Shown: piece by piece, positions 41,135-63,737 of the stretch | Numbering within the stretch: the stretch's first letter is position 1 | Layout of the letters: the number at the start of each line of letters is the position of its first letter | Source of the DNA: a virus | Taxonomy: Duplodnaviria; Caudoviricetes | IMG/VR virus record: IMGVR_UViG_3300037524_000424 | Coordinates: 13,609-77,608 of that record | DNA: 64,000 bases | Direction: 5' to 3' (one strand) | Notes under the pieces: model-generated | What the model was told of the DNA's origin: nothing | The model's input: the letters and a program-made list of their open reading frames with translations, nothing else | Databases searched by the model: none | Translations under genes and position numbers: made by a program

Positions 41135-41217
41135 CAGAAGTGGTCTCGTTTATGAGTCGCTTCGGCGTTAGTGCGTGAGACAAGGAAGTCGAATAGAATT
41201 TAAGAATTTGATTGACT
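41135..41217 (+). ncRNA. candidate structured RNA upstream of tnpB
   Basis: GTCTC 41143-47/GAGAC 41177-81 enclosing CGC-TTCG-GCG; second hairpin AGTC 41187-90/GACT 41214-17. Confidence 0.45.
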
Positions 41218-42333
41218 ATGATAATAAAGATATGGTATATTAATAGTATGGAAAAGAAAGATAAATCAAAAATTACAGTAACCCGTAGCTATAAATTACA
41301 AATTATAGCAAATAAAGCTAAAACAGATACAGCTAAGTATTTGATAAATCGTTATAACTTATATGTTGTTCAGTTTTTAGGGAATATGTATTATTATAAT
41401 AAATCAGAGTCAACTTCCGGATTAGGAGAATTAGCCAATCAAGCGCAGCATTGTGCTAAAGGTAAATCTAAGGCAATTAGAGAATCAGCAAAAGCTACAG
41501 GAAATAAAGTTAATTTACCGTTAAAAACGAACGAAGGGGTTCCTGTTAAAGTAGAAGAAAATAAAGAAACAACATTTGACTATGTGGTAAAAGTCCCTAA
41601 CCATTGGGTAAAAAATAACAAGTTAAACTTAATGGTAAAATCTACTAAAGTTTTAAATAAAGCATTGAAAAATGGATGGACTCGAACTACCTTTGGGGAG
41701 TTAAAACTAGATAAATCTGGTAATCTTTACATCATAATAACCGTTCAAAAAGAAGTTAAACGAGCAGAAAAGAATAAAAACTGTATCGGGGTTGACGTAG
41801 GAATTAGAAATGGAATAGCTAGAAGCGATGGTTACTTAGGAGAAGAACTATCACAAGTAATTAAGTCACAAAAATTAAAGCAATCAGCACGTCAAAAACA
41901 AGGGCATAAAAGTAAAATAAATAAAACTACCGTTAAACAAATATTAGATAAAGAAGCCAAGAAAACTGTTGCACGTTGCTCAGAATCGAAGTTGTCTTTA
42001 GCGGTTGAATCGAGAAAAGTATTGAATAACCTAAGAAGCGGGAAGTTACAGGGTTGGGCAAGAAACTATTTTGCCAATCGTTGTGAAATCTTATGTAAGG
42101 AAAATTCAGTATTCTTCGTAGAAGTAAATCCATACCAAACATCGCAGTTGTGTGGTCATTGCGGTTCCGAAGGAATTCGTGATGGAAAACAGTTTAACTG
42201 CCTTTCTTGCCAGAAAACCTTTGATGCTGACTTAAATGCCAGCATCAATATAGCAAAGAAAGGACGGCAAGTGATTGAACAAATCGCGATCAGGTTGTCG
42301 GAAAAAGCGAGGCGTGATGCGAGCGTTTCGTAA
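41212..42333 (+). mobile_element. tnpB: solo TnpB (IS200/IS605-family RNA-guided nuclease)
   Basis: RuvC-I IGVDVG, RuvC-II AVES, CGHC/CLSC Zn finger, RuvC-III DADLNASINI; real start probably ATG 41248 behind TTGACT-18-TATATT; no tnpA. Confidence 0.85.
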
Positions 42334-48803: not shown

Positions 48804-49355
48804 TTATATCCTAACGAGTCCTAACTCCTCCAGCATATCAAAATACAACGCTACCTTCGTGTCCCGGTATTTCGGACTGTTAGGAATACCCCAGGCATCT
48901 TTCTCCTTAATATCTACAGCACTAGCAAATCCTAGGAAGTTCACTTGATGTCTCCCCATATCGACTATACAGAATACTAACCAATCTCTAGGAGTAGGTC
49001 TGCGGTATAGAGGGTCTGACTTCTGGAATAACCAGCTTATGCCATGCCGTTGTGAGGACTCTAAAGACTGCGACTTAACGTGAAAGTCGAAGGAGTCGGA
49101 CTTTAGGTCGGCAGAGAAGGATTTACGTTCTTTGGTGTATAGGGTAAAGTCGGGAGAGGATAACGAAGGGTCGATGTTGGAGTAGACTCGGTGAAAACAG
49201 ATTTCTCCTAAAGCTCCGACGATAGTATCTTCGTTTATTTTGGAAGGACGGGATTCTCCTCGGCTGGAGTAGATGCCGAAGGACGTTGCCGTTCTTCGGA
49301 CTGCGAAGGTTTCAGCTAGGGAGAGGTCGGAGGGAGTGAAGGAAGTTGAGGTCAT
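48804..49355 (-). CDS. restriction-endonuclease-like PD-(D/E)XK protein
   Basis: GALGEICF, PD, ADL, HVKSQ pattern. Confidence 0.5.
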   Translation of the reverse strand: MTSTSFTPSDLSLAETFAVRRTATSFGIYSSRGESRPSKINEDTIVGALGEICFHRVYSNIDPSLSSPDFTLYTKERKSFSADLKSDSFDFHVKSQSLESSQRHGISWLFQKSDPLYRRPTPRDWLVFCIVDMGRHQVNFLGFASAVDIKEKDAWGIPNSPKYRDTKVALYFDMLEELGLVRI

Positions 49356-50041
49356 TCGTTACCGTCAATTAATTCTTTCAGGACGTTTCTTTTCGATTTC
49401 AGATAGTATTTCTCAAACTGAGATAAGTCAAGCAAATTCTCGAATATCTCCAGCGTATTCCAGACTCTTTTCAACAGTCGTTCCTTATTCTCGTCATTCT
49501 GCCATTTATCCGCCAGTTTCAAGCTATCGTTTACATCGAAGTAAACGTAAATCTTATCTCCTTCTCGAAAGTCTTCTCCCTCTAAAGCATCCAGGACTTT
49601 CTGTTCGTTAGTCCGTTCTGGATTCATTACTGACTTAGTGATGGTACGTTTGGTAGACCAACGGGATATGTCGGTAACGGTTTGGGATTCGACGATATAG
49701 GATTTGTATATCTCCTGGATTTTGAATAGAGAGTTGTCGTCCAGCATTACTTTGATAATACGTTCTATCATTTCTCGTAGTGCAGTTTCTCTCTTTGAAT
49801 CTGTAAAACCGGACCCCTTGATTTTAATCTTTCCATCCTTTTCTAGGATATAATTTTTTGCTTTATTAACTATAACGGTTTGATAATATCCATCATCTTC
49901 CATTTTAATTAAATCAGGAAGAAAATCGTTTATCTCTTTTAACAGTTTTTCTCTTTCTTCTTTAGTTATTTCGGACATATCTTTTTTACAAAAAGAGATA
50001 CTATCGGTGTCTACAACATTTATTATAAAATCATGTACCAT
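49352..50041 (-). CDS. polB: family B DNA polymerase, C-terminal fragment
   Basis: NVVDTDS motif C, KNYIL, IKGSG; own SD AAGGA and ATG. Confidence 0.85.
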   Translation of the reverse strand: MVHDFIINVVDTDSISFCKKDMSEITKEEREKLLKEINDFLPDLIKMEDDGYYQTVIVNKAKNYILEKDGKIKIKGSGFTDSKRETALREMIERIIKVMLDDNSLFKIQEIYKSYIVESQTVTDISRWSTKRTITKSVMNPERTNEQKVLDALEGEDFREGDKIYVYFDVNDSLKLADKWQNDENKERLLKRVWNTLEIFENLLDLSQFEKYYLKSKRNVLKELIDGNE

Positions 50042-50946
50042 TTTTTATCCTTTTTCTTAACATAGAAATTATATTTTGTATGATTGTTTCTTTTTCCTAA
50101 TATTACCTGGTTAATATGAGAAAGACAGTTAAAGTTTAATTTTTTAAACAATTGTTTTAGGCTAAAAAATCTACCAACTAGATTATTATCATTTTTAAGA
50201 TAAACGTCAATATGGTCGTATTTTTGTGAATAGTGGTACCTTTCTTTGGTAAAAAAGTCCTCTGGTACATTATTAAGATAACATATAGATAGATTGTGTT
50301 TTTTAATTGTCTTAGACCTTCCCATTAAAACGTCACATATTGTTGATGGTGCGATTCCTAATTTTATAGAGGCATCAGTTAGTGATTCATAATAAAACCC
50401 ATTTGTATCAATTAATGATTTTTTGCTTTCCTCTATTGATGTCTTTAAACTAGAGTGACGATTGAGTCTTAATGCAGTTTCTCTCATTCTTTTTTTAGTT
50501 TCTTCATTGCGCTTTGATCCGATCCTCTTGCGAAGTATTTTTTCACGTTGTTCTTCTTTCCATGTCCCTCCGTAGTTATAGTGATTCTCTCCTTTTGGTC
50601 TATCCCACTCTGCCATTTTTTTCTTAGAAGCAGCAGAATGTTTTCTTCCTTCCATCGGAGCTTTGGCATCCTTTGCTATATTATATTCGGGCTTATACTT
50701 CTTTAGGTATACATTTTCAATTCGCAATCTATTCTCCCTGGTACATTCTTGTATTATACCATAAATAAAAGAAGATTCCCCATATTTATTATAAGCATAA
50801 TTTAGGTGTTCGTTATGATGTTTATTCTTTCTGAGGAAGTTAAAATGTGTATTCATTCTTTTCTTAAAGTCAACAGTACTTCCTATATAAATATTACCAT
50901 TCACTACATTCTTAATCATATATACAGCACAAATCTTAAAAGACAT
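50023..50946 (-). CDS. GIY-YIG homing endonuclease with NUMOD3-like repeats
   Basis: AVYMIKN...IYIGST..FKKR...H; GRKHSAASKKKM. Confidence 0.85.
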   Translation of the reverse strand: MSFKICAVYMIKNVVNGNIYIGSTVDFKKRMNTHFNFLRKNKHHNEHLNYAYNKYGESSFIYGIIQECTRENRLRIENVYLKKYKPEYNIAKDAKAPMEGRKHSAASKKKMAEWDRPKGENHYNYGGTWKEEQREKILRKRIGSKRNEETKKRMRETALRLNRHSSLKTSIEESKKSLIDTNGFYYESLTDASIKLGIAPSTICDVLMGRSKTIKKHNLSICYLNNVPEDFFTKERYHYSQKYDHIDVYLKNDNNLVGRFFSLKQLFKKLNFNCLSHINQVILGKRNNHTKYNFYVKKKDKKWYMIL

Positions 50947-52693
50947 CCTTATACCTTTCGTCCTTTTCTATATCATAATCTTTCATATACTCTTGCACGT
51001 CCTTTCCTGAAGCCCACAATAAACACATTCTGATGATCTGCCTCCCGATACCGGTGATTCTATCTCCTGCTCTAAAATCATTAAAATTTAGTCCACTACA
51101 GGAGAGCATCCCAAAACTTGAATTAGCAACCACTTTTGATGCAGCTTGTAAATCGTCATAGTATTTATCCCCGGTCTTTTTAAACATATTCTTTTCCTCA
51201 ATTCTCTTGAGTGTAAAATGTTCCACTATTTTCGGATAATACTTCTTTACGTCCTTTCCTTCTGGATATATCTGAAATGCTCGCATAATACTCGGATACA
51301 TAGACTGTACGTCAACTTTAAAAACATTCTTGTAAATCCCGGGAACTCCAAATGATATGCCGCCATGGACATATTCTCGTTCACTAGCCAACGGTATTGA
51401 ATGATTATCCTGCAAGTATGCCCTAACCATCATGCTGTTCAACCAAGCCCCACTAGCCGATTGAGTTACCGTTTGTAAAGGTTTCGGAATATATGAAGTC
51501 AAGTAAAAAAAGCTCGGGATCATTAACTCGAATAGCCGCAGCGAATCGTCAGAATCCCCTGAGCAATACTGTTTGAACCTATCCCAGTCGGCTTTCTCTT
51601 TAGGTAAATTCTTATACAAGTCCATCGGACTGATTTTCTCAAAGTCCCAAAGAACTCTATCTTCCTTCTGCCAACCCAAATGTTGAATGATGCCCTTCAG
51701 TTTGTAGTTCGGAAAGTTGCGGCTAACGTCATACTTTAAAGCTAACATCCAAGTGTCGATTATTTCTCTACCGTGAACGAAACATTTCGTATAGTCGTAG
51801 GACTGGGAACCGTCATAACGAATCTTGCTCGGCTTCTTATCAAAAGTAATCCTACTTCCATCTCTGCCCAACTCTAGTCCCAATAATCCATTTAGTTCCG
51901 CCCTGGTATTCAAATATGGTATGTCAAACGAAACGACGTTATGTCCTATTAACAGACTTGGATTCTTCTCGTTTACCCAACGAATCCAGGACTTTAGCAT
52001 AGCCCCTTCATTTCCCTTAAAGTCGTCAATAGCGAACAACTTCCTCTCTACCTTATCCCCGCATTTGTAGGTATTGCTTATCATAAAGACTAAAGCATCG
52101 TGGTCGGTCGGGTTAAGTCCGCTAGTCTCAATATCGAAACTTAGGGCACTAACCTCGTCTATCTTCATTCCCTTAAACAACGTATAACCATCCTTAATCA
52201 TGGCAGACTCGACATCGTTATGGACTACATAGAAGGTTTCCCGGTCACGGAAAGTAGTCATTCTGCTCTTATTGAAACTCTCGAAGTCAGGATATTCCTT
52301 CATAAATCGATAATGAAGACTTCCCTCTAGCTCCCGATAGGAAGTCCTGGGTCTATCGGATGATAAAATCCAGCGTTTAAGGGGTCTAACAACCGTTTTA
52401 ATGAGTCCTGGGGACTCCTCTATGTAAAGGTACAGCTCCGAGTCTCCAGCGGCTATAGAAACGATTTTCTCGGTCTGGTCTTTGCCGTAGATAAGAGTGT
52501 CGTATTTAGGGATAATCTCGGACAATAAATCCAGAAATTCTGGGGGTATAATCGCCTCGTCTCCGTCGCTAAAAGATAAAGTTCCGGAATTATTGGATCT
52601 AATGTAATAGCAACCGTCCTTAACGTGGGTTTTCAGTTTATCTATTTCTTCGGTATTGTTAACTTTGAATAGCACAATTCCCCCTATAGTCAA
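50936..52693 (-). CDS. polB: family B DNA polymerase, N-terminal fragment (exonuclease, motifs A and B)
   Basis: FDIETSG, HNVVSFDIPYL; VDVQSMYPS; KVVANSSFG; stops before motif C. Confidence 0.9.
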   Translation of the reverse strand: MTIGGIVLFKVNNTEEIDKLKTHVKDGCYYIRSNNSGTLSFSDGDEAIIPPEFLDLLSEIIPKYDTLIYGKDQTEKIVSIAAGDSELYLYIEESPGLIKTVVRPLKRWILSSDRPRTSYRELEGSLHYRFMKEYPDFESFNKSRMTTFRDRETFYVVHNDVESAMIKDGYTLFKGMKIDEVSALSFDIETSGLNPTDHDALVFMISNTYKCGDKVERKLFAIDDFKGNEGAMLKSWIRWVNEKNPSLLIGHNVVSFDIPYLNTRAELNGLLGLELGRDGSRITFDKKPSKIRYDGSQSYDYTKCFVHGREIIDTWMLALKYDVSRNFPNYKLKGIIQHLGWQKEDRVLWDFEKISPMDLYKNLPKEKADWDRFKQYCSGDSDDSLRLFELMIPSFFYLTSYIPKPLQTVTQSASGAWLNSMMVRAYLQDNHSIPLASEREYVHGGISFGVPGIYKNVFKVDVQSMYPSIMRAFQIYPEGKDVKKYYPKIVEHFTLKRIEEKNMFKKTGDKYYDDLQAASKVVANSSFGMLSCSGLNFNDFRAGDRITGIGRQIIRMCLLWASGKDVQEYMKDYDIEKDERYKDVF

Positions 52694-60630: not shown

Positions 60631-61350
60631 TTATGCTGCTTCACTTAATAACATGTTAATACGTTGCACAAATCCAGTCAAGTCTTTTTTTGCTTGACCT
60701 TTGGCAGTCAATCCAACTATAACACCATTATTCCCATCAAGAAAGCGCAAGTCATGATTATCGCCACTAATGACCTTATAGCCCATGAACTCGGCTGGAA
60801 CTTCTGCAAATACTGCCGCTACATTAATTCCCAACTTAATTATCTTCAAAGCATGACCTAAGTTAGATTCCGACAAAGAAAAGGTCAAGTGATAGTTAGC
60901 GGGCATCTTGTTAGCAAACCGTCTGAAGTCTTTGGTGTAGTCATAGAATTGAACGCTAGGGAAAATTTGAAAGATATTCTTTCCGTTATTTTGGATTTTC
61001 TCCCAAACAATGTCTGAAGTACCGTTAAGCCGGATAGCCAACTTTAACCCCAACTTTTGTGCTTTACGTTGTGCCTTGGAAATATCTACCGCCAAAGCCG
61101 CCATAAACCCGTTAAGATCGTCTCGAAAGAACTCGGTTTTTGAAACTCGGGCTTTCTGGACATTGTTAAATCTACCTCTACCGGCGCTGTATAAACATGA
61201 TTTACGGCAACCCTTAGATGCCAACGGACATAAATTAAGACCTTTGACCGTATTAGATGGGGCAAGGTATAGGATACCCGTTAAGTAGCCCAAAGACTCG
61301 CCTTTAACCGTCTTAGCGTTTGAATATCCTAGTAGTGGTCTTGATTTCAT
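60631..61350 (-). CDS. phage Gp88-like Cys-cluster protein
   Basis: GILYLAP...CPLASKGCRKSC...IRLNGTSD..W...QFYDYTK...DLRFLD...GLTAKG. Confidence 0.75.
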   Translation of the reverse strand: MKSRPLLGYSNAKTVKGESLGYLTGILYLAPSNTVKGLNLCPLASKGCRKSCLYSAGRGRFNNVQKARVSKTEFFRDDLNGFMAALAVDISKAQRKAQKLGLKLAIRLNGTSDIVWEKIQNNGKNIFQIFPSVQFYDYTKDFRRFANKMPANYHLTFSLSESNLGHALKIIKLGINVAAVFAEVPAEFMGYKVISGDNHDLRFLDGNNGVIVGLTAKGQAKKDLTGFVQRINMLLSEAA

Positions 61351-61375: not shown

Positions 61376-61558
61376 TTAGTAAATAGCTCGAATTATCGCG
61401 TCATACCGAACACTATCGTCAATTGCTTCTAGTTCTTCATCGGTTAACGGAGTACCATCGGTAAATTCTGCATAACTAATAAACGCGTCACAAAAGTCAG
61501 GATAGTCTTTAAAGTCGATGTTTTCAATCTCGATGCTGTTAAAGTTTAGGATTTTCAT
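61376..61558 (-). CDS. small acidic phage protein
   Basis: DYPDFCDAFISYAEF.DG.PLTDEEL motif. Confidence 0.65.
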   Translation of the reverse strand: MKILNFNSIEIENIDFKDYPDFCDAFISYAEFTDGTPLTDEELEAIDDSVRYDAIIRAIY

Positions 61559-61899
61559 ACTATCCCCCCTATTTCGGTTAGTAGTCGGTTTAATTTAGTA
61601 TACACTAAATGACTATCATCGGTTGCATCTTGAAGATCCATAAGACTAATAATATTAAGAATCCCTTCTTTCAATGATTCTAATTCTTTCTTGGAGGATA
61701 AGTCAGTAACATCGAAACTAACATCCTCAACGCGGGCTGACCTATAAGTTGCCATCCCTTTGACTTTATCTCCTATCTTATAGTGTCTAACATCCATTCC
61801 CCCAGTTTCTAGAATGTCCCCGCTTTTCGTTCTGATATACATAAAACAATCATCTTTCCTAACTACTTTACCACTAACACCAATTCTAATCGTTTTCAT
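61555..61899 (-). CDS. hypothetical protein
   Basis: First gene after the 61951-79 promoter. Confidence 0.6.
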   Translation of the reverse strand: MKTIRIGVSGKVVRKDDCFMYIRTKSGDILETGGMDVRHYKIGDKVKGMATYRSARVEDVSFDVTDLSSKKELESLKEGILNIISLMDLQDATDDSHLVYTKLNRLLTEIGGIV

Positions 61900-61910
61900 G
61901 TTTTCCCCCT

Positions 61911-61933
61911 ATCTTCACTTCGTTAAGCGAAGT
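61911..61933 (-). repeat. conserved leader hairpin, copy 2
   Basis: ACTTCG-CTTAA-CGAAGT-GAAGAT then GGGGG SD. Confidence 0.75.
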
Positions 61934-61950
61934 TTTTTCGTTCCTAGGTC

Positions 61951-61979
61951 ATTATCTCACGTTTGACGGTTTGCGTCAA
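61951..61979 (-). promoter_or_regulatory. sigma70 promoter TTGACG-17-GATAAT
   Basis: Drives leftward early genes; divergent from the 62010 promoter. Confidence 0.7.
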
Positions 61980-62009
61980 GAGAAAAGATTAATTAATTTA
62001 ATATTTTAA

Positions 62010-62038
62010 TTGACAACTATTTGTGGCAGTGATAGAAT
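62010..62038 (+). promoter_or_regulatory. sigma70 promoter TTGACA-17-TAGAAT
   Basis: Near-perfect with extended -10; no credible downstream + strand ORF. Confidence 0.8.
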
Positions 62039-62068
62039 TAAGCTGAGGGACTGAAAAAATAATAAGTC

Positions 62069-62078
62069 CATCAAGTAT
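62069..62078 (+). promoter_or_regulatory. CATCAAGTAT motif upstream of ncRNA candidate
   Basis: Exact copy 13 nt before the first helix strand. Confidence 0.7.
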
Positions 62079-62088
62079 AATTAGACAA

Positions 62089-62475
62089 CCAGTTTTTGAG
62101 GAACGTGAAAAAATTCACAAAAAACTAGGTCAATTGGAAGTTTCGAACTCCACGAAATTGTCCTGAAAAAGGCAATTGACGGTGTCGGTATGAGCCCCCT
62201 AACACTCCAGCTCAACTAGGTAACGTGGGAATATGTGCCTAGCGTAACGCCTCAAAAACAAAGAACTATTCTGATTTCCTAAGTTTGGGACTAGTTCATT
62301 GGTGAAGTATTCAGGGATAGCATCCCACAACTAGTCGGCGAAAGTCAAAGATACCCGACTAAGTTTGATTTGACCGCCTTAACTTTTCGGCTAAGACGGT
62401 ATAAGTCGAACTATGCCAAGAAATGCTACTTTAAAAGTCGTGAGGTTGGAATTATGCCACTAACTGCTTGTTTTT
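62089..62475 (+). ncRNA. large multi-branched structured RNA candidate (~390 nt)
   Basis: No ORF of 60 aa or more; nested perfect helices 62092-101/62250-59, 62129-36/62173-80, 62216-20/62238-42, 62289-96/62329-36, 62314-18/62322-26; terminal U-tract. Confidence 0.7.
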
Positions 62476-62496
62476 AGGATAGTGTTGAATTTATGG

Positions 62497-62685
62497 TTAT
62501 GATGGTTTGGAGTAAAGGAAAAGTTTGAGGGAAAAGTCAACGAACAAAATTCTCGAATCTTTACAGTCACTTAGAATCTCCTTCGTCCTCTTAAACTTGA
62601 CCTTAAGCCTTTCCATCCTCACTACTTCATCCTGATCGTTCTGCAACTGCTTCGCTACTTCTGCTCTTTTCTGTTCAATGTCCAT
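62497..62685 (-). CDS. hypothetical coiled-coil protein
   Basis: G6 SD; converges on the ncRNA candidate. Confidence 0.55.
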   Translation of the reverse strand: MDIEQKRAEVAKQLQNDQDEVVRMERLKVKFKRTKEILSDCKDSRILFVDFSLKLFLYSKPS

Positions 62686-62739
62686 AACTGCCCCCCAATT
62701 GTTGTAATACAGTCTAGTACCCCAGTTTACTCTTATATG

Positions 62740-63042
62740 CTAGTCTTCATCCCAATACAACTCTGACTTATCAACCGGATAGTCCTCTAATAGCTGCCCA
62801 ACCTCACCAATGTCGTACATCCTACCGTCAATCATAATATAGTCGTTTTCAAGCTCTACCAAATGTCTTTCAAACTCTTCTGACCTAGTCAACCCCATTA
62901 AGAATCCTTCAACTTCAAAGTCAGTCAGTCCACTATCGTCAATAAATCCTGAAATGAACTCGTCAGGATAATAGCCACGAAGTTGCTGCTTAATCATCTC
63001 TACTTCGTCACTATTAAGATCATCCTTAGTCAATCGTCTCAT
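62740..63042 (-). CDS. highly acidic early protein
   Basis: 28 D+E versus 9 K+R in 100 aa (hand count). Confidence 0.65.
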   Translation of the reverse strand: MRRLTKDDLNSDEVEMIKQQLRGYYPDEFISGFIDDSGLTDFEVEGFLMGLTRSEEFERHLVELENDYIMIDGRMYDIGEVGQLLEDYPVDKSELYWDED

Positions 63043-63064
63043 GTCCTACCCCCGATATAATGCT

Positions 63065-63093
63065 ATTATAGCCGAAATCTGCCACTAAGTCAA
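63065..63093 (-). promoter_or_regulatory. sigma70 promoter TTGACT-17-TATAAT
   Basis: Near-consensus. Confidence 0.75.
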
Positions 63094-63096
63094 GCA

Positions 63097-63363
63097 CTAA
63101 AGACCTCTAACGCCAATCATTTCCCGTTCACATACGTCAATTTTAAAGTCCCCATCCGTCAGCTCTAAGTCGTCCCTCCAATAGTCGTCAATATGCTCTG
63201 CGTCAATGCCAACTAAATGATCGTGTCCACATATTGGACATGCATCCTTAGCCGCGGCAGTCAGAGGAAGATAGTCCCGCTGGCATCCATCGCAATGAAC
63301 TAATTGAGCTCGGTCCTTCAGGATTTGTTTAATGATCTTAAGTTGTTCTTTGTTAGTTGCCAT
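63097..63363 (-). CDS. Zn-ribbon hypothetical protein
   Basis: HCDGC, CPICG. Confidence 0.6.
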   Translation of the reverse strand: MATNKEQLKIIKQILKDRAQLVHCDGCQRDYLPLTAAAKDACPICGHDHLVGIDAEHIDDYWRDDLELTDGDFKIDVCEREMIGVRGL

Positions 63364-63667: not shown

Positions 63668-63679
63668 GTTGAACTCCTT

Positions 63680-63703
63680 ATCTTCACTTCGTTCAGCGAA
63701 GTT
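63680..63703 (-). repeat. conserved leader hairpin, copy 3
   Basis: ACTTCG-CTGAA-CGAAGT-GAAGAT at the predicted transcript start. Confidence 0.75.
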
Positions 63704-63708
63704 AATTC

Positions 63709-63737
63709 ATTCTAGCACGTTTACCGCATTGTGTCAA
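63709..63737 (-). promoter_or_regulatory. sigma70 promoter TTGACA-17-TAGAAT
   Basis: Near-perfect with extended -10. Confidence 0.8.

Follow-up and report, generated by a model that had tools for sequence, protein, structure and literature searches.

A conserved, uncatalogued structured RNA behind two promoter-like elements in a wetland phage, adjoined by Vsr-like nuclease genes in its relatives

What occupies a gap of 597 nucleotides (nt) with no evident gene in a densely packed phage genome? The question is raised by a 77.6-kb record of an uncultivated freshwater phage from a wetland sample (IMG/VR IMGVR_UViG_3300037524_000424; CheckV completeness estimate 91%), of which we analyzed the right-hand 64 kb, hereafter the window. 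The gap lies between the minus-strand genes 61555-61899 and 62497-62685, and an earlier sequence-only reading had proposed that about 430 nt of it, oriented opposite to the surrounding genes, encode a large and possibly undescribed structured phage RNA. No credible open reading frame (ORF) was found in 61900-62497, where only frames of 35–44 amino acids (aa) occur on either strand, none of them kept in relatives. Comparison with related phages shows that the flagged stretch is a discrete, conserved plus-strand RNA structure behind two conserved promoter-like elements. It is a genuine structured RNA family that matches no catalogued one, with covariation support that is good though drawn from a small sample.

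Relatives were reached through the 62-aa gene at 62497-62685, whose two homologues in the protein collection (82–87% identity) led to the contigs L083 and L084, the same genome region in related phages. A further contig, L139, is of the same type as L083 and covers the same site, and two otherwise unrelated phages, the Logan contig L125 and L127, share a multi-helix core of ~130–170 nt with the window and L083/L139. The ends of the RNA unit are sharp: contigs of the sequencing runs X5 and X7 join position 62083 to 62477, with or without foreign sequence between, and homology to L083 resumes at 62084. The direct joints indicate that the 393-nt piece in between (62084-62476, plus strand) behaves as a cassette. 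It comprises domain 1, the conserved core (62092-62259), and domain 2 (62260-62476), which is common only to the window and L083/L139; L125 and L127 share with each other a 3′ extension unlike domain 2. A further allele is represented by L084 (1774-1851), in which the right-hand junction and a short part of the RNA tail are again found, with ~55 nt of different sequence between them; the contig stops before the core is reached.

Domain 1 is closed by helix P1, a perfect 10-base-pair (bp) inverted repeat at 62092-62101/62250-62259 that the sequence-only reading had already picked out; across the family the closing helix has 6–10 bp. Inside P1 lie a 5′ junction strand, AACGUGAA (62102-62109), and a 3′ junction strand, CGUAACG (62243-62249), which read AMCGUGAA and YGKAASG, respectively, across the window, L083, L139, L125 and L127. 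Directly before the 3′ junction strand, family members possess a hairpin of 7–8 bp with a G-rich loop, here Pb (62216-62242; stem 62216-62222/62236-62242), the predicted CTAGG/CCTAG arm. Ahead of the terminal hairpin, inspection by eye shows a further one in every member, here Pa (62191-62214), whose stem letters differ between members, and the domain varies in its middle part. The loops of these two hairpins could base-pair with each other, through a C-run in the penultimate (62196-62200) and a G-run in the last (62226-62230); the same loops in L083, CCG and CGG, are compatible with such a loop-loop contact, although the sequences are few. Other predicted arms fared less well, and about half of the listed helices were confirmed overall. 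The GTGAA/TTCAC hairpin and the GTCAATTG/CAATTGAC arm (62129-62180) can be formed by the sequence, but both are missing from every relative and thus specific to this lineage, and the GGTGT/ACACT pairing clashes with the recurrent hairpin Pa and is broken, uncompensated, by a natural C62205>G change.

Covariation among homologues, set beforehand as a test of the predicted RNA, was present in both P1 and Pb. A plain MAFFT alignment of the window, L083 and L125 had the 10 bp of P1 and the 7 bp of Pb paired in 50 of 50 cells, with 8 of the 17 pairs changed on both sides. The covariance model R1, seeded with the same three sequences, found L127, which lies outside the seed, at E ~0.001, and its best score in 712 kb of unrelated phage DNA was 19.8 bits (E 0.54). 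When L127 was added, all 67 cells were paired, leaving both helices 100% paired, and 13 of the 17 pairs (7 of 10 in P1 and 6 of 7 in Pb) were changed on both sides. None of 500 shuffles reached any of five measures, and sliding the partner strand by 1–3 columns reduced pairing to 27–51% of cells. The four-sequence alignment was fitted to the model and so leans towards the structure; since the count of 8 of 17 comes from MAFFT only, the covariation signal is independent of model fitting. In another contig, L137, the 3′ junction and the terminal hairpin can be made out by eye, but it was not found by the model and folds no better than shuffles, and it is counted as a tentative member only. L130 and L131 were rejected as members, being DUF559 loci without the RNA motif.

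Folding energies gave the same picture and pointed to the plus strand. Compared with shuffled sequences, the plus strand reached z −2.8, both for the whole stretch and for domain 1 alone, and the minus strand z −1.3. The four core members scored −2.8, −2.3, −4.6 and −2.0, and the minimum-energy folds of all four (window, L083, L125 and L127) have paired ends and a hairpin just before the 3′ end. The strand was further indicated by the kinds of pairs observed: the helices contain three G-U cells and no A-C cell, which fits a plus-strand RNA. A G-U pair next to P1 in L139 and a U-G pair in a lake-water variant of the stretch would, like the helix G-U cells, be C-A mismatches on the other strand. 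These observations bear on the possibility that the palindromes act as DNA, be it as an origin of replication, as a site for packaging or as a recombination hot spot close to the end of the genome. The stretch does lie 1.5 kb from the right end of the contig, in a mosaic hot spot for which three or more alternative fillings were seen, and arrays of −24/−12-like boxes follow downstream here and in L125 and L127. Nevertheless, the compensatory changes preserve pairs, including G-U pairs that the other strand would mismatch, the plus strand folds clearly better than the minus strand, no iterons were found, and the promoters described below are conserved exactly in front of the RNA. A DNA site is therefore disfavored, and we consider it very improbable.

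Domain 2 was examined against L083, in which its helices are likewise bracketed by conserved single-stranded anchors. A small hairpin (62314-62326) has an L083 counterpart with different stem letters, and a short helix (62333-62338/62355-62360) has one with a single double change. The long hairpin of ~50 nt (62362-62412), with z −4.6 in the window and −5.2 in L083, keeps the base pairs at its foot, the sequence above them being unrelated. The predicted GAAA loop at 62340 is not supported as conserved, the lake variant having UAAA there. A sequence-only alignment of domain 2 misaligned the stems, and RNAalifold run on it was uninformative. The tail of the domain consists of a 25-nt direct repeat and a U-tract (62470-62476). 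The two copies of the repeat (62408-62432/62449-62473) are 76% identical and stand 41 nt apart; L083 has kept the first, and L084 contains part of the second.

No catalogued RNA family matches this element. A search of the whole window with the 4227 models of Rfam 15, which include group I and II introns, RNase P, signal recognition particle (SRP) RNA, 6S RNA, transfer-messenger RNA (tmRNA), GOLLD, ROOL, HEARO, the IS605-orfB motifs and small ribozymes, gave no hit at the gathering threshold. At E≤10, the region 61700-62800 yielded only two chance hits, outside or below threshold, and L083, L125, L127, L137 and L130 yielded none at E≤1. ARAGORN found no transfer RNA (tRNA) or tmRNA gene in the window, in agreement with the predicted lack of tRNA, tmRNA, RNase P and SRP signatures. 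By contrast, the faint likeness to group I intron elements P7/P9 that had been suggested did not hold, with no Rfam hit in the window or four relatives and no surrounding exons. A degenerate or unusual self-splicing intron, or another ribozyme that once carried a nuclease ORF, would suit the fact that homing endonuclease ORFs are typical intron passengers, that ORF-containing and ORF-less forms coexist, and that the B-family DNA polymerase gene (polB, 49352-52693) of the same phage is split by a GIY-YIG/NUMOD homing-endonuclease ORF. However, no Rfam intron or ribozyme family, RF00028 (group I) included, matches the window or its relatives even at permissive thresholds, and the element interrupts no plus-strand gene, as it runs from a promoter to the 3′ end of a convergent gene with no plus-strand ORF on either side. 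We regard this origin as the least probable of those considered. The RNA resembles GOLLD, ROOL and OLE, large orphan structured RNAs of phages and bacteria (cryo-electron microscopy: bioRxiv 10.1101/2024.12.08.627333), as an orphan, phage-borne, multi-helix ncRNA (non-coding RNA) of several hundred nt that was recognized by covariation; it differs in that the Rfam models of those families do not match it, in its smaller size, in its location away from tRNA genes and in its link to nucleases.

Both promoter-like elements that had been noted ahead of the stretch were borne out. A sigma70-type promoter with an extended −10 box (TTGACA-17-TGnTAGAAT, 62010-62038, plus strand) matched 11 of 12 positions in the promoter scan and is directed into the RNA. 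It is kept in L083, which is 92% identical to the window over 61949-62038, and a divergent minus-strand promoter of the same type (61979-61951; 10 of 12 with TG) serves the early gene 61555-61899. The second element is an exact copy of the motif CATCAAGTAT at 62069, which together with a TA-rich box covers 62069-62085. CATCAAGTAT occurs in nine exact copies in the 77.6-kb genome, all on the plus strand and all intergenic, and the eight others precede virion genes, usually with a TA-rich box after the motif. Its distribution therefore makes it a credible phage-specific late promoter motif.

Whereas the window contains the RNA alone, L083, L139, L125 and L127 all carry a nuclease gene beside it. 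L083 has, after both promoter elements, a 168-aa ORF scoring above the Pfam cut-off for DUF559 (PF04480, a Vsr-like endonuclease domain); homology to the window resumes within the last 20 codons of this ORF and continues to the same right-hand junction. These shared flanks identify the window as the same locus without the nuclease ORF. A DUF559 ORF lies upstream of the RNA on the same strand, between promoter and RNA, in L083, L139, L125 and L127, its 3′ end abutting or overlapping the RNA. The L125 core begins immediately past the stop codon of a protein 39% identical (P0005/P0006), and the L127 nuclease, ~46% identical to that of L125 (P0006/P0008), ends inside the 5′ junction strand of the RNA. 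The stop codon varies in position from just before the closing helix to ~60 nt inside the RNA. The nuclease-RNA unit is opposite in strand to the flanking small genes in all relatives, as is the RNA here. Neither tblastn nor the PF04480 model detected a DUF559 gene in the whole 91%-complete genome, and no remnant of the ORF was found in the window, where only the shared 5′ edge of the RNA aligns; an adjacent nuclease is thus not a universal feature of the family. Homing endonuclease genes of T-even phages (I-TevI type) are under early and late promoter control and have a 5′ hairpin that hides the ribosome-binding site. The tandem of a host-type and a phage late-type promoter before the L083 ORF recalls that arrangement, but there the hairpin is 5′ of the gene, whereas here the conserved structure is 3′ of the ORF and is solitary in this phage.

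A different conserved element follows other nuclease genes of this kind: just past the DUF559 stop codons in L128 (1953-1993), L140 (731-790) and L141 (1608-1660) stands another shared motif, GCCNGUAAUAGUU ... AUCAAGGC. Different subfamilies of the nuclease thus seem to be coupled with different conserved elements downstream. Beyond the nuclease-RNA unit, a few hundred nt downstream, −24/−12-like boxes (TGGYA-N6-8-TTGCW) form clusters in L125 (1100-1160, and on the minus strand), L127 (2270-2400) and L141 (2120-2230), often close to a G-run; in the window the boxes are at the contig end (63771-64000).

To what extent the RNA is under constraint was addressed with natural variants, namely contigs from lake-water runs compared over 61400-63100. 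A lake variant collinear over 62001-62490 differs at 12 of 391 positions in the RNA body (3%) and at 9 of 47 in the leader between the −10 box and the closing helix (19%; p 1e-4), although the −10 box and CATCAAGTAT are both unaltered. The right-hand genes differ at 46 of 338 positions (~14%; p 1.5e-7 against the RNA). None of its substitutions falls in the closing helix, the Pa and Pb stems or the long hairpin 62362-62412, and A62358>G turns a U-A pair into U-G, a change tolerated only on the plus strand. A second comparison, between L139 and L083 over 825 ungapped nt, gave 73 differences in the 612 nt before the closing helix and none in the 213 nt from the helix on, 53 nt of which are overlap between ORF and RNA. 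Closest to the helix, at one base before it, is a difference that replaces A-U by G-U. In two independent comparisons, therefore, the change from fast to slow evolution falls at the 5′ end of the RNA. Of the 44 differences inside the ORF, 28 affect third codon positions, indicating that the nuclease gene is itself under selection.

Taken together, these data led us to favor, at a probability of roughly 50%, an independent ~390-nt structured ncRNA gene, belonging to an undescribed RNA family of freshwater phages, that doubles as a landing site and promoter donor for nucleases. The RNA is placed first because it is kept well in nuclease-free phages, being conserved in two such populations (wetland and lake), and because it is more constrained than the nuclease. 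On this proposal, it would be synthesized early from the host-type promoter and late from the phage's own late-type promoter, the late-type transcript probably starting at the foot of the closing helix, and would act in trans as a folded molecule, our guess being a protein-binding or scaffold RNA. Because the RNA gene is highly conserved, its 5′ edge would serve a lineage of free-standing Vsr-like (DUF559) homing endonucleases as an insertion site, and an inserted ORF, placed between promoter and RNA, would borrow the promoter and read into the RNA; the present phage would be the nuclease-free allele. A precedent is SegB of T4, a free-standing homing endonuclease encoded among tRNA genes that recognizes a conserved tRNA motif (PMC2330249). 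The two cases share a selfish nuclease beside conserved structured-RNA genes, nuclease-plus and nuclease-minus alleles in related phages, and a conserved motif of the RNA gene as the likely recognition site; SegB, however, is a GIY-YIG enzyme with tRNA gene targets, whereas here the nuclease is DUF559/Vsr-like, the RNA family uncatalogued and the cleavage putative. The Vsr-like (EDxHD) homing endonucleases, with I-Bth0305I as prototype, include free-standing genes in phage and metagenome data (PMC3239194), and the nucleases of the relatives have a catalytic domain of the same Vsr type. They differ from that family in that their sequence profile reaches the DUF559 structure 3HRL, not I-Bth0305I, and in that they are only 150–170 aa long with no NUMOD domain detected; the window, moreover, has no nuclease.

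Several observations weigh against this proposal. The family comprises only four to five distinct members, and all those outside the present lineage were found via the nuclease gene, so that the strength of the association is biased by ascertainment. The stretch occurred in DNA contigs only, and no RNA run contained it. The left-hand gene differs by only 4% in X7 lake contigs, and the low divergence of the RNA could partly reflect recent shared ancestry or recombination instead of selection; because of this small difference in one run, we grade the lake-variant contrast as moderate evidence of constraint. A scan of plus-strand 62400-62500 found no canonical terminator at the RNA 3′ end. The T run at 62470-62476 lacks a qualifying stem, so the U-tract predicted for the end is present but forms no hairpin-plus-T site, and the 3′ end has been set by the cassette boundary and the U-tract. 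Finally, the nuclease ORF of L083 has, close to its 3′ end, a degenerate version of the late motif, and the nuclease-free allele could stem from deletion of the ORF, in which case the RNA may have begun in a nuclease cassette.

This last point also counts for the one serious rival, which we judge unlikely, the others being disfavored. It takes the RNA as a structured 3′ untranslated region of a nuclease cassette, where it would stabilize or terminate the messenger RNA (mRNA) and protect it against early transcription from the opposite direction. The present copy would have stayed behind when the ORF was lost, perhaps as an insulator or as an origin of antisense RNA to the convergent early genes. 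In four relatives the RNA comes immediately after a same-strand nuclease ORF or overlaps it, it always faces convergent genes, the DUF559 genes of L128, L140 and L141 also have downstream conserved non-coding sequence, though of a different type, and the degenerate late-motif copy in L083 could have mediated the loss of the ORF. A relic should drift, yet the RNA body has diverged far less than its own leader in the lake variant. The RNA is also much more constrained than the ORF it would serve, it lacks the hairpin-plus-U terminator, and a multi-helix junction with conserved junction strands exceeds the needs of a stabilizer.

Alternatively, the RNA could be a partner of the Vsr-like nuclease, such as a guide, an activator, an inhibitor or an antitoxin, whose gene would span the 3′ end of the ORF as that of the TnpB omega-RNA does. 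The two would then form a functional pair, RNA-dependent or RNA-regulated, and the solo copy would be a decoy or immunity RNA against the nucleases of co-infecting relatives. Same-strand overlap of the RNA with the ORF 3′ end across diverged nuclease lineages, a lysine/arginine-rich N-terminus in P0006 and the higher conservation of the RNA than of the protein are consistent with a partnership. Nevertheless, the RNA is under constraint here in a 91%-complete genome without a DUF559 gene, the ORF does not always stop at the same point of the RNA, the downstream elements are not the same in other DUF559 subfamilies, and the characterized Vsr-like homing endonucleases recognize DNA by protein alone (PMC3239194). 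What the family has in common with TnpB/IscB omega-RNA is a structured RNA that straddles the 3′ end of a nuclease ORF in the same orientation. The likeness does not extend to the locus in the window, where the neighbors are small early genes, the sole tnpB-like ORF (41212-42333) is ~20 kb away, no Rfam omega-RNA model matches, no variable guide-like segment was identified and the RNA persists without a nuclease. Such a partnership is improbable in our view. A decoy idea drawn from the likeness of the 5′ junction to the start of an early-mRNA leader was dropped, the match being too short to tell from chance.

Further searches for the family returned no additional member. No second copy of the RNA was found in the rest of the genome, including another ncRNA candidate at ~5.7–6.2 kb (best E 0.38). 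Exact-pattern scans with conserved stretches of the RNA were empty in the viral and genome contig collections, and gave 40 hits in metagenome contigs that were all due to chance, with no similarity beyond the pattern. As anchors, the flanking 114-aa gene had no relatives, a neighboring GP88-family gene led to 80 unrelated loci with the RNA in none, and the capsid gene led to one distant contig without it.

The surroundings of the RNA are those of an early region. The phage, which encodes a P22-type portal, a DnaB-like helicase and a B-family polymerase, has no close annotated relative that we could find, and BLAST of the flagged stretch against annotated phages gave no match. Virion genes occupy the plus strand up to ~28.7 kb, and beyond, to the end of the window, nearly all genes are on the minus strand. 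On the right, the convergent 62-aa early gene (62497-62685) has a strong Shine-Dalgarno (SD) sequence and a stop codon 20 nt from the RNA 3′ boundary. To the left of the divergent promoter, the 114-aa early gene (61555-61899) has no homologue but itself among 5.8 billion proteins; its place is taken by an unrelated 109-aa ORF in L083, and it is missing from L139 and from one X5 contig, which joins 61558 to 61943. The whole neighborhood of the RNA is a mosaic hot spot. Two minus-strand early genes are preceded by a 37-nt hairpin-plus-SD leader (61907-61943 and 63676-63712; 86% identity), in both cases directly downstream of a sigma70-type promoter. The GP88-family (PF17338) gene at 60631-61350 has >330 relatives (~50–56% identity) on IMG/VR contigs of very diverse kinds and gives the impression of an accessory gene in wide exchange.

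About 400 ORF-free nt that stand behind two promoters in a dense phage genome and are more conserved than their neighbors point to an RNA with a job. If the RNA and the small Vsr-like nucleases prove to be partners, they would represent a new type of RNA-dependent nuclease. If instead the favored landing-site reading is true, such nucleases would be signposts to unknown conserved RNA genes in viral dark matter.
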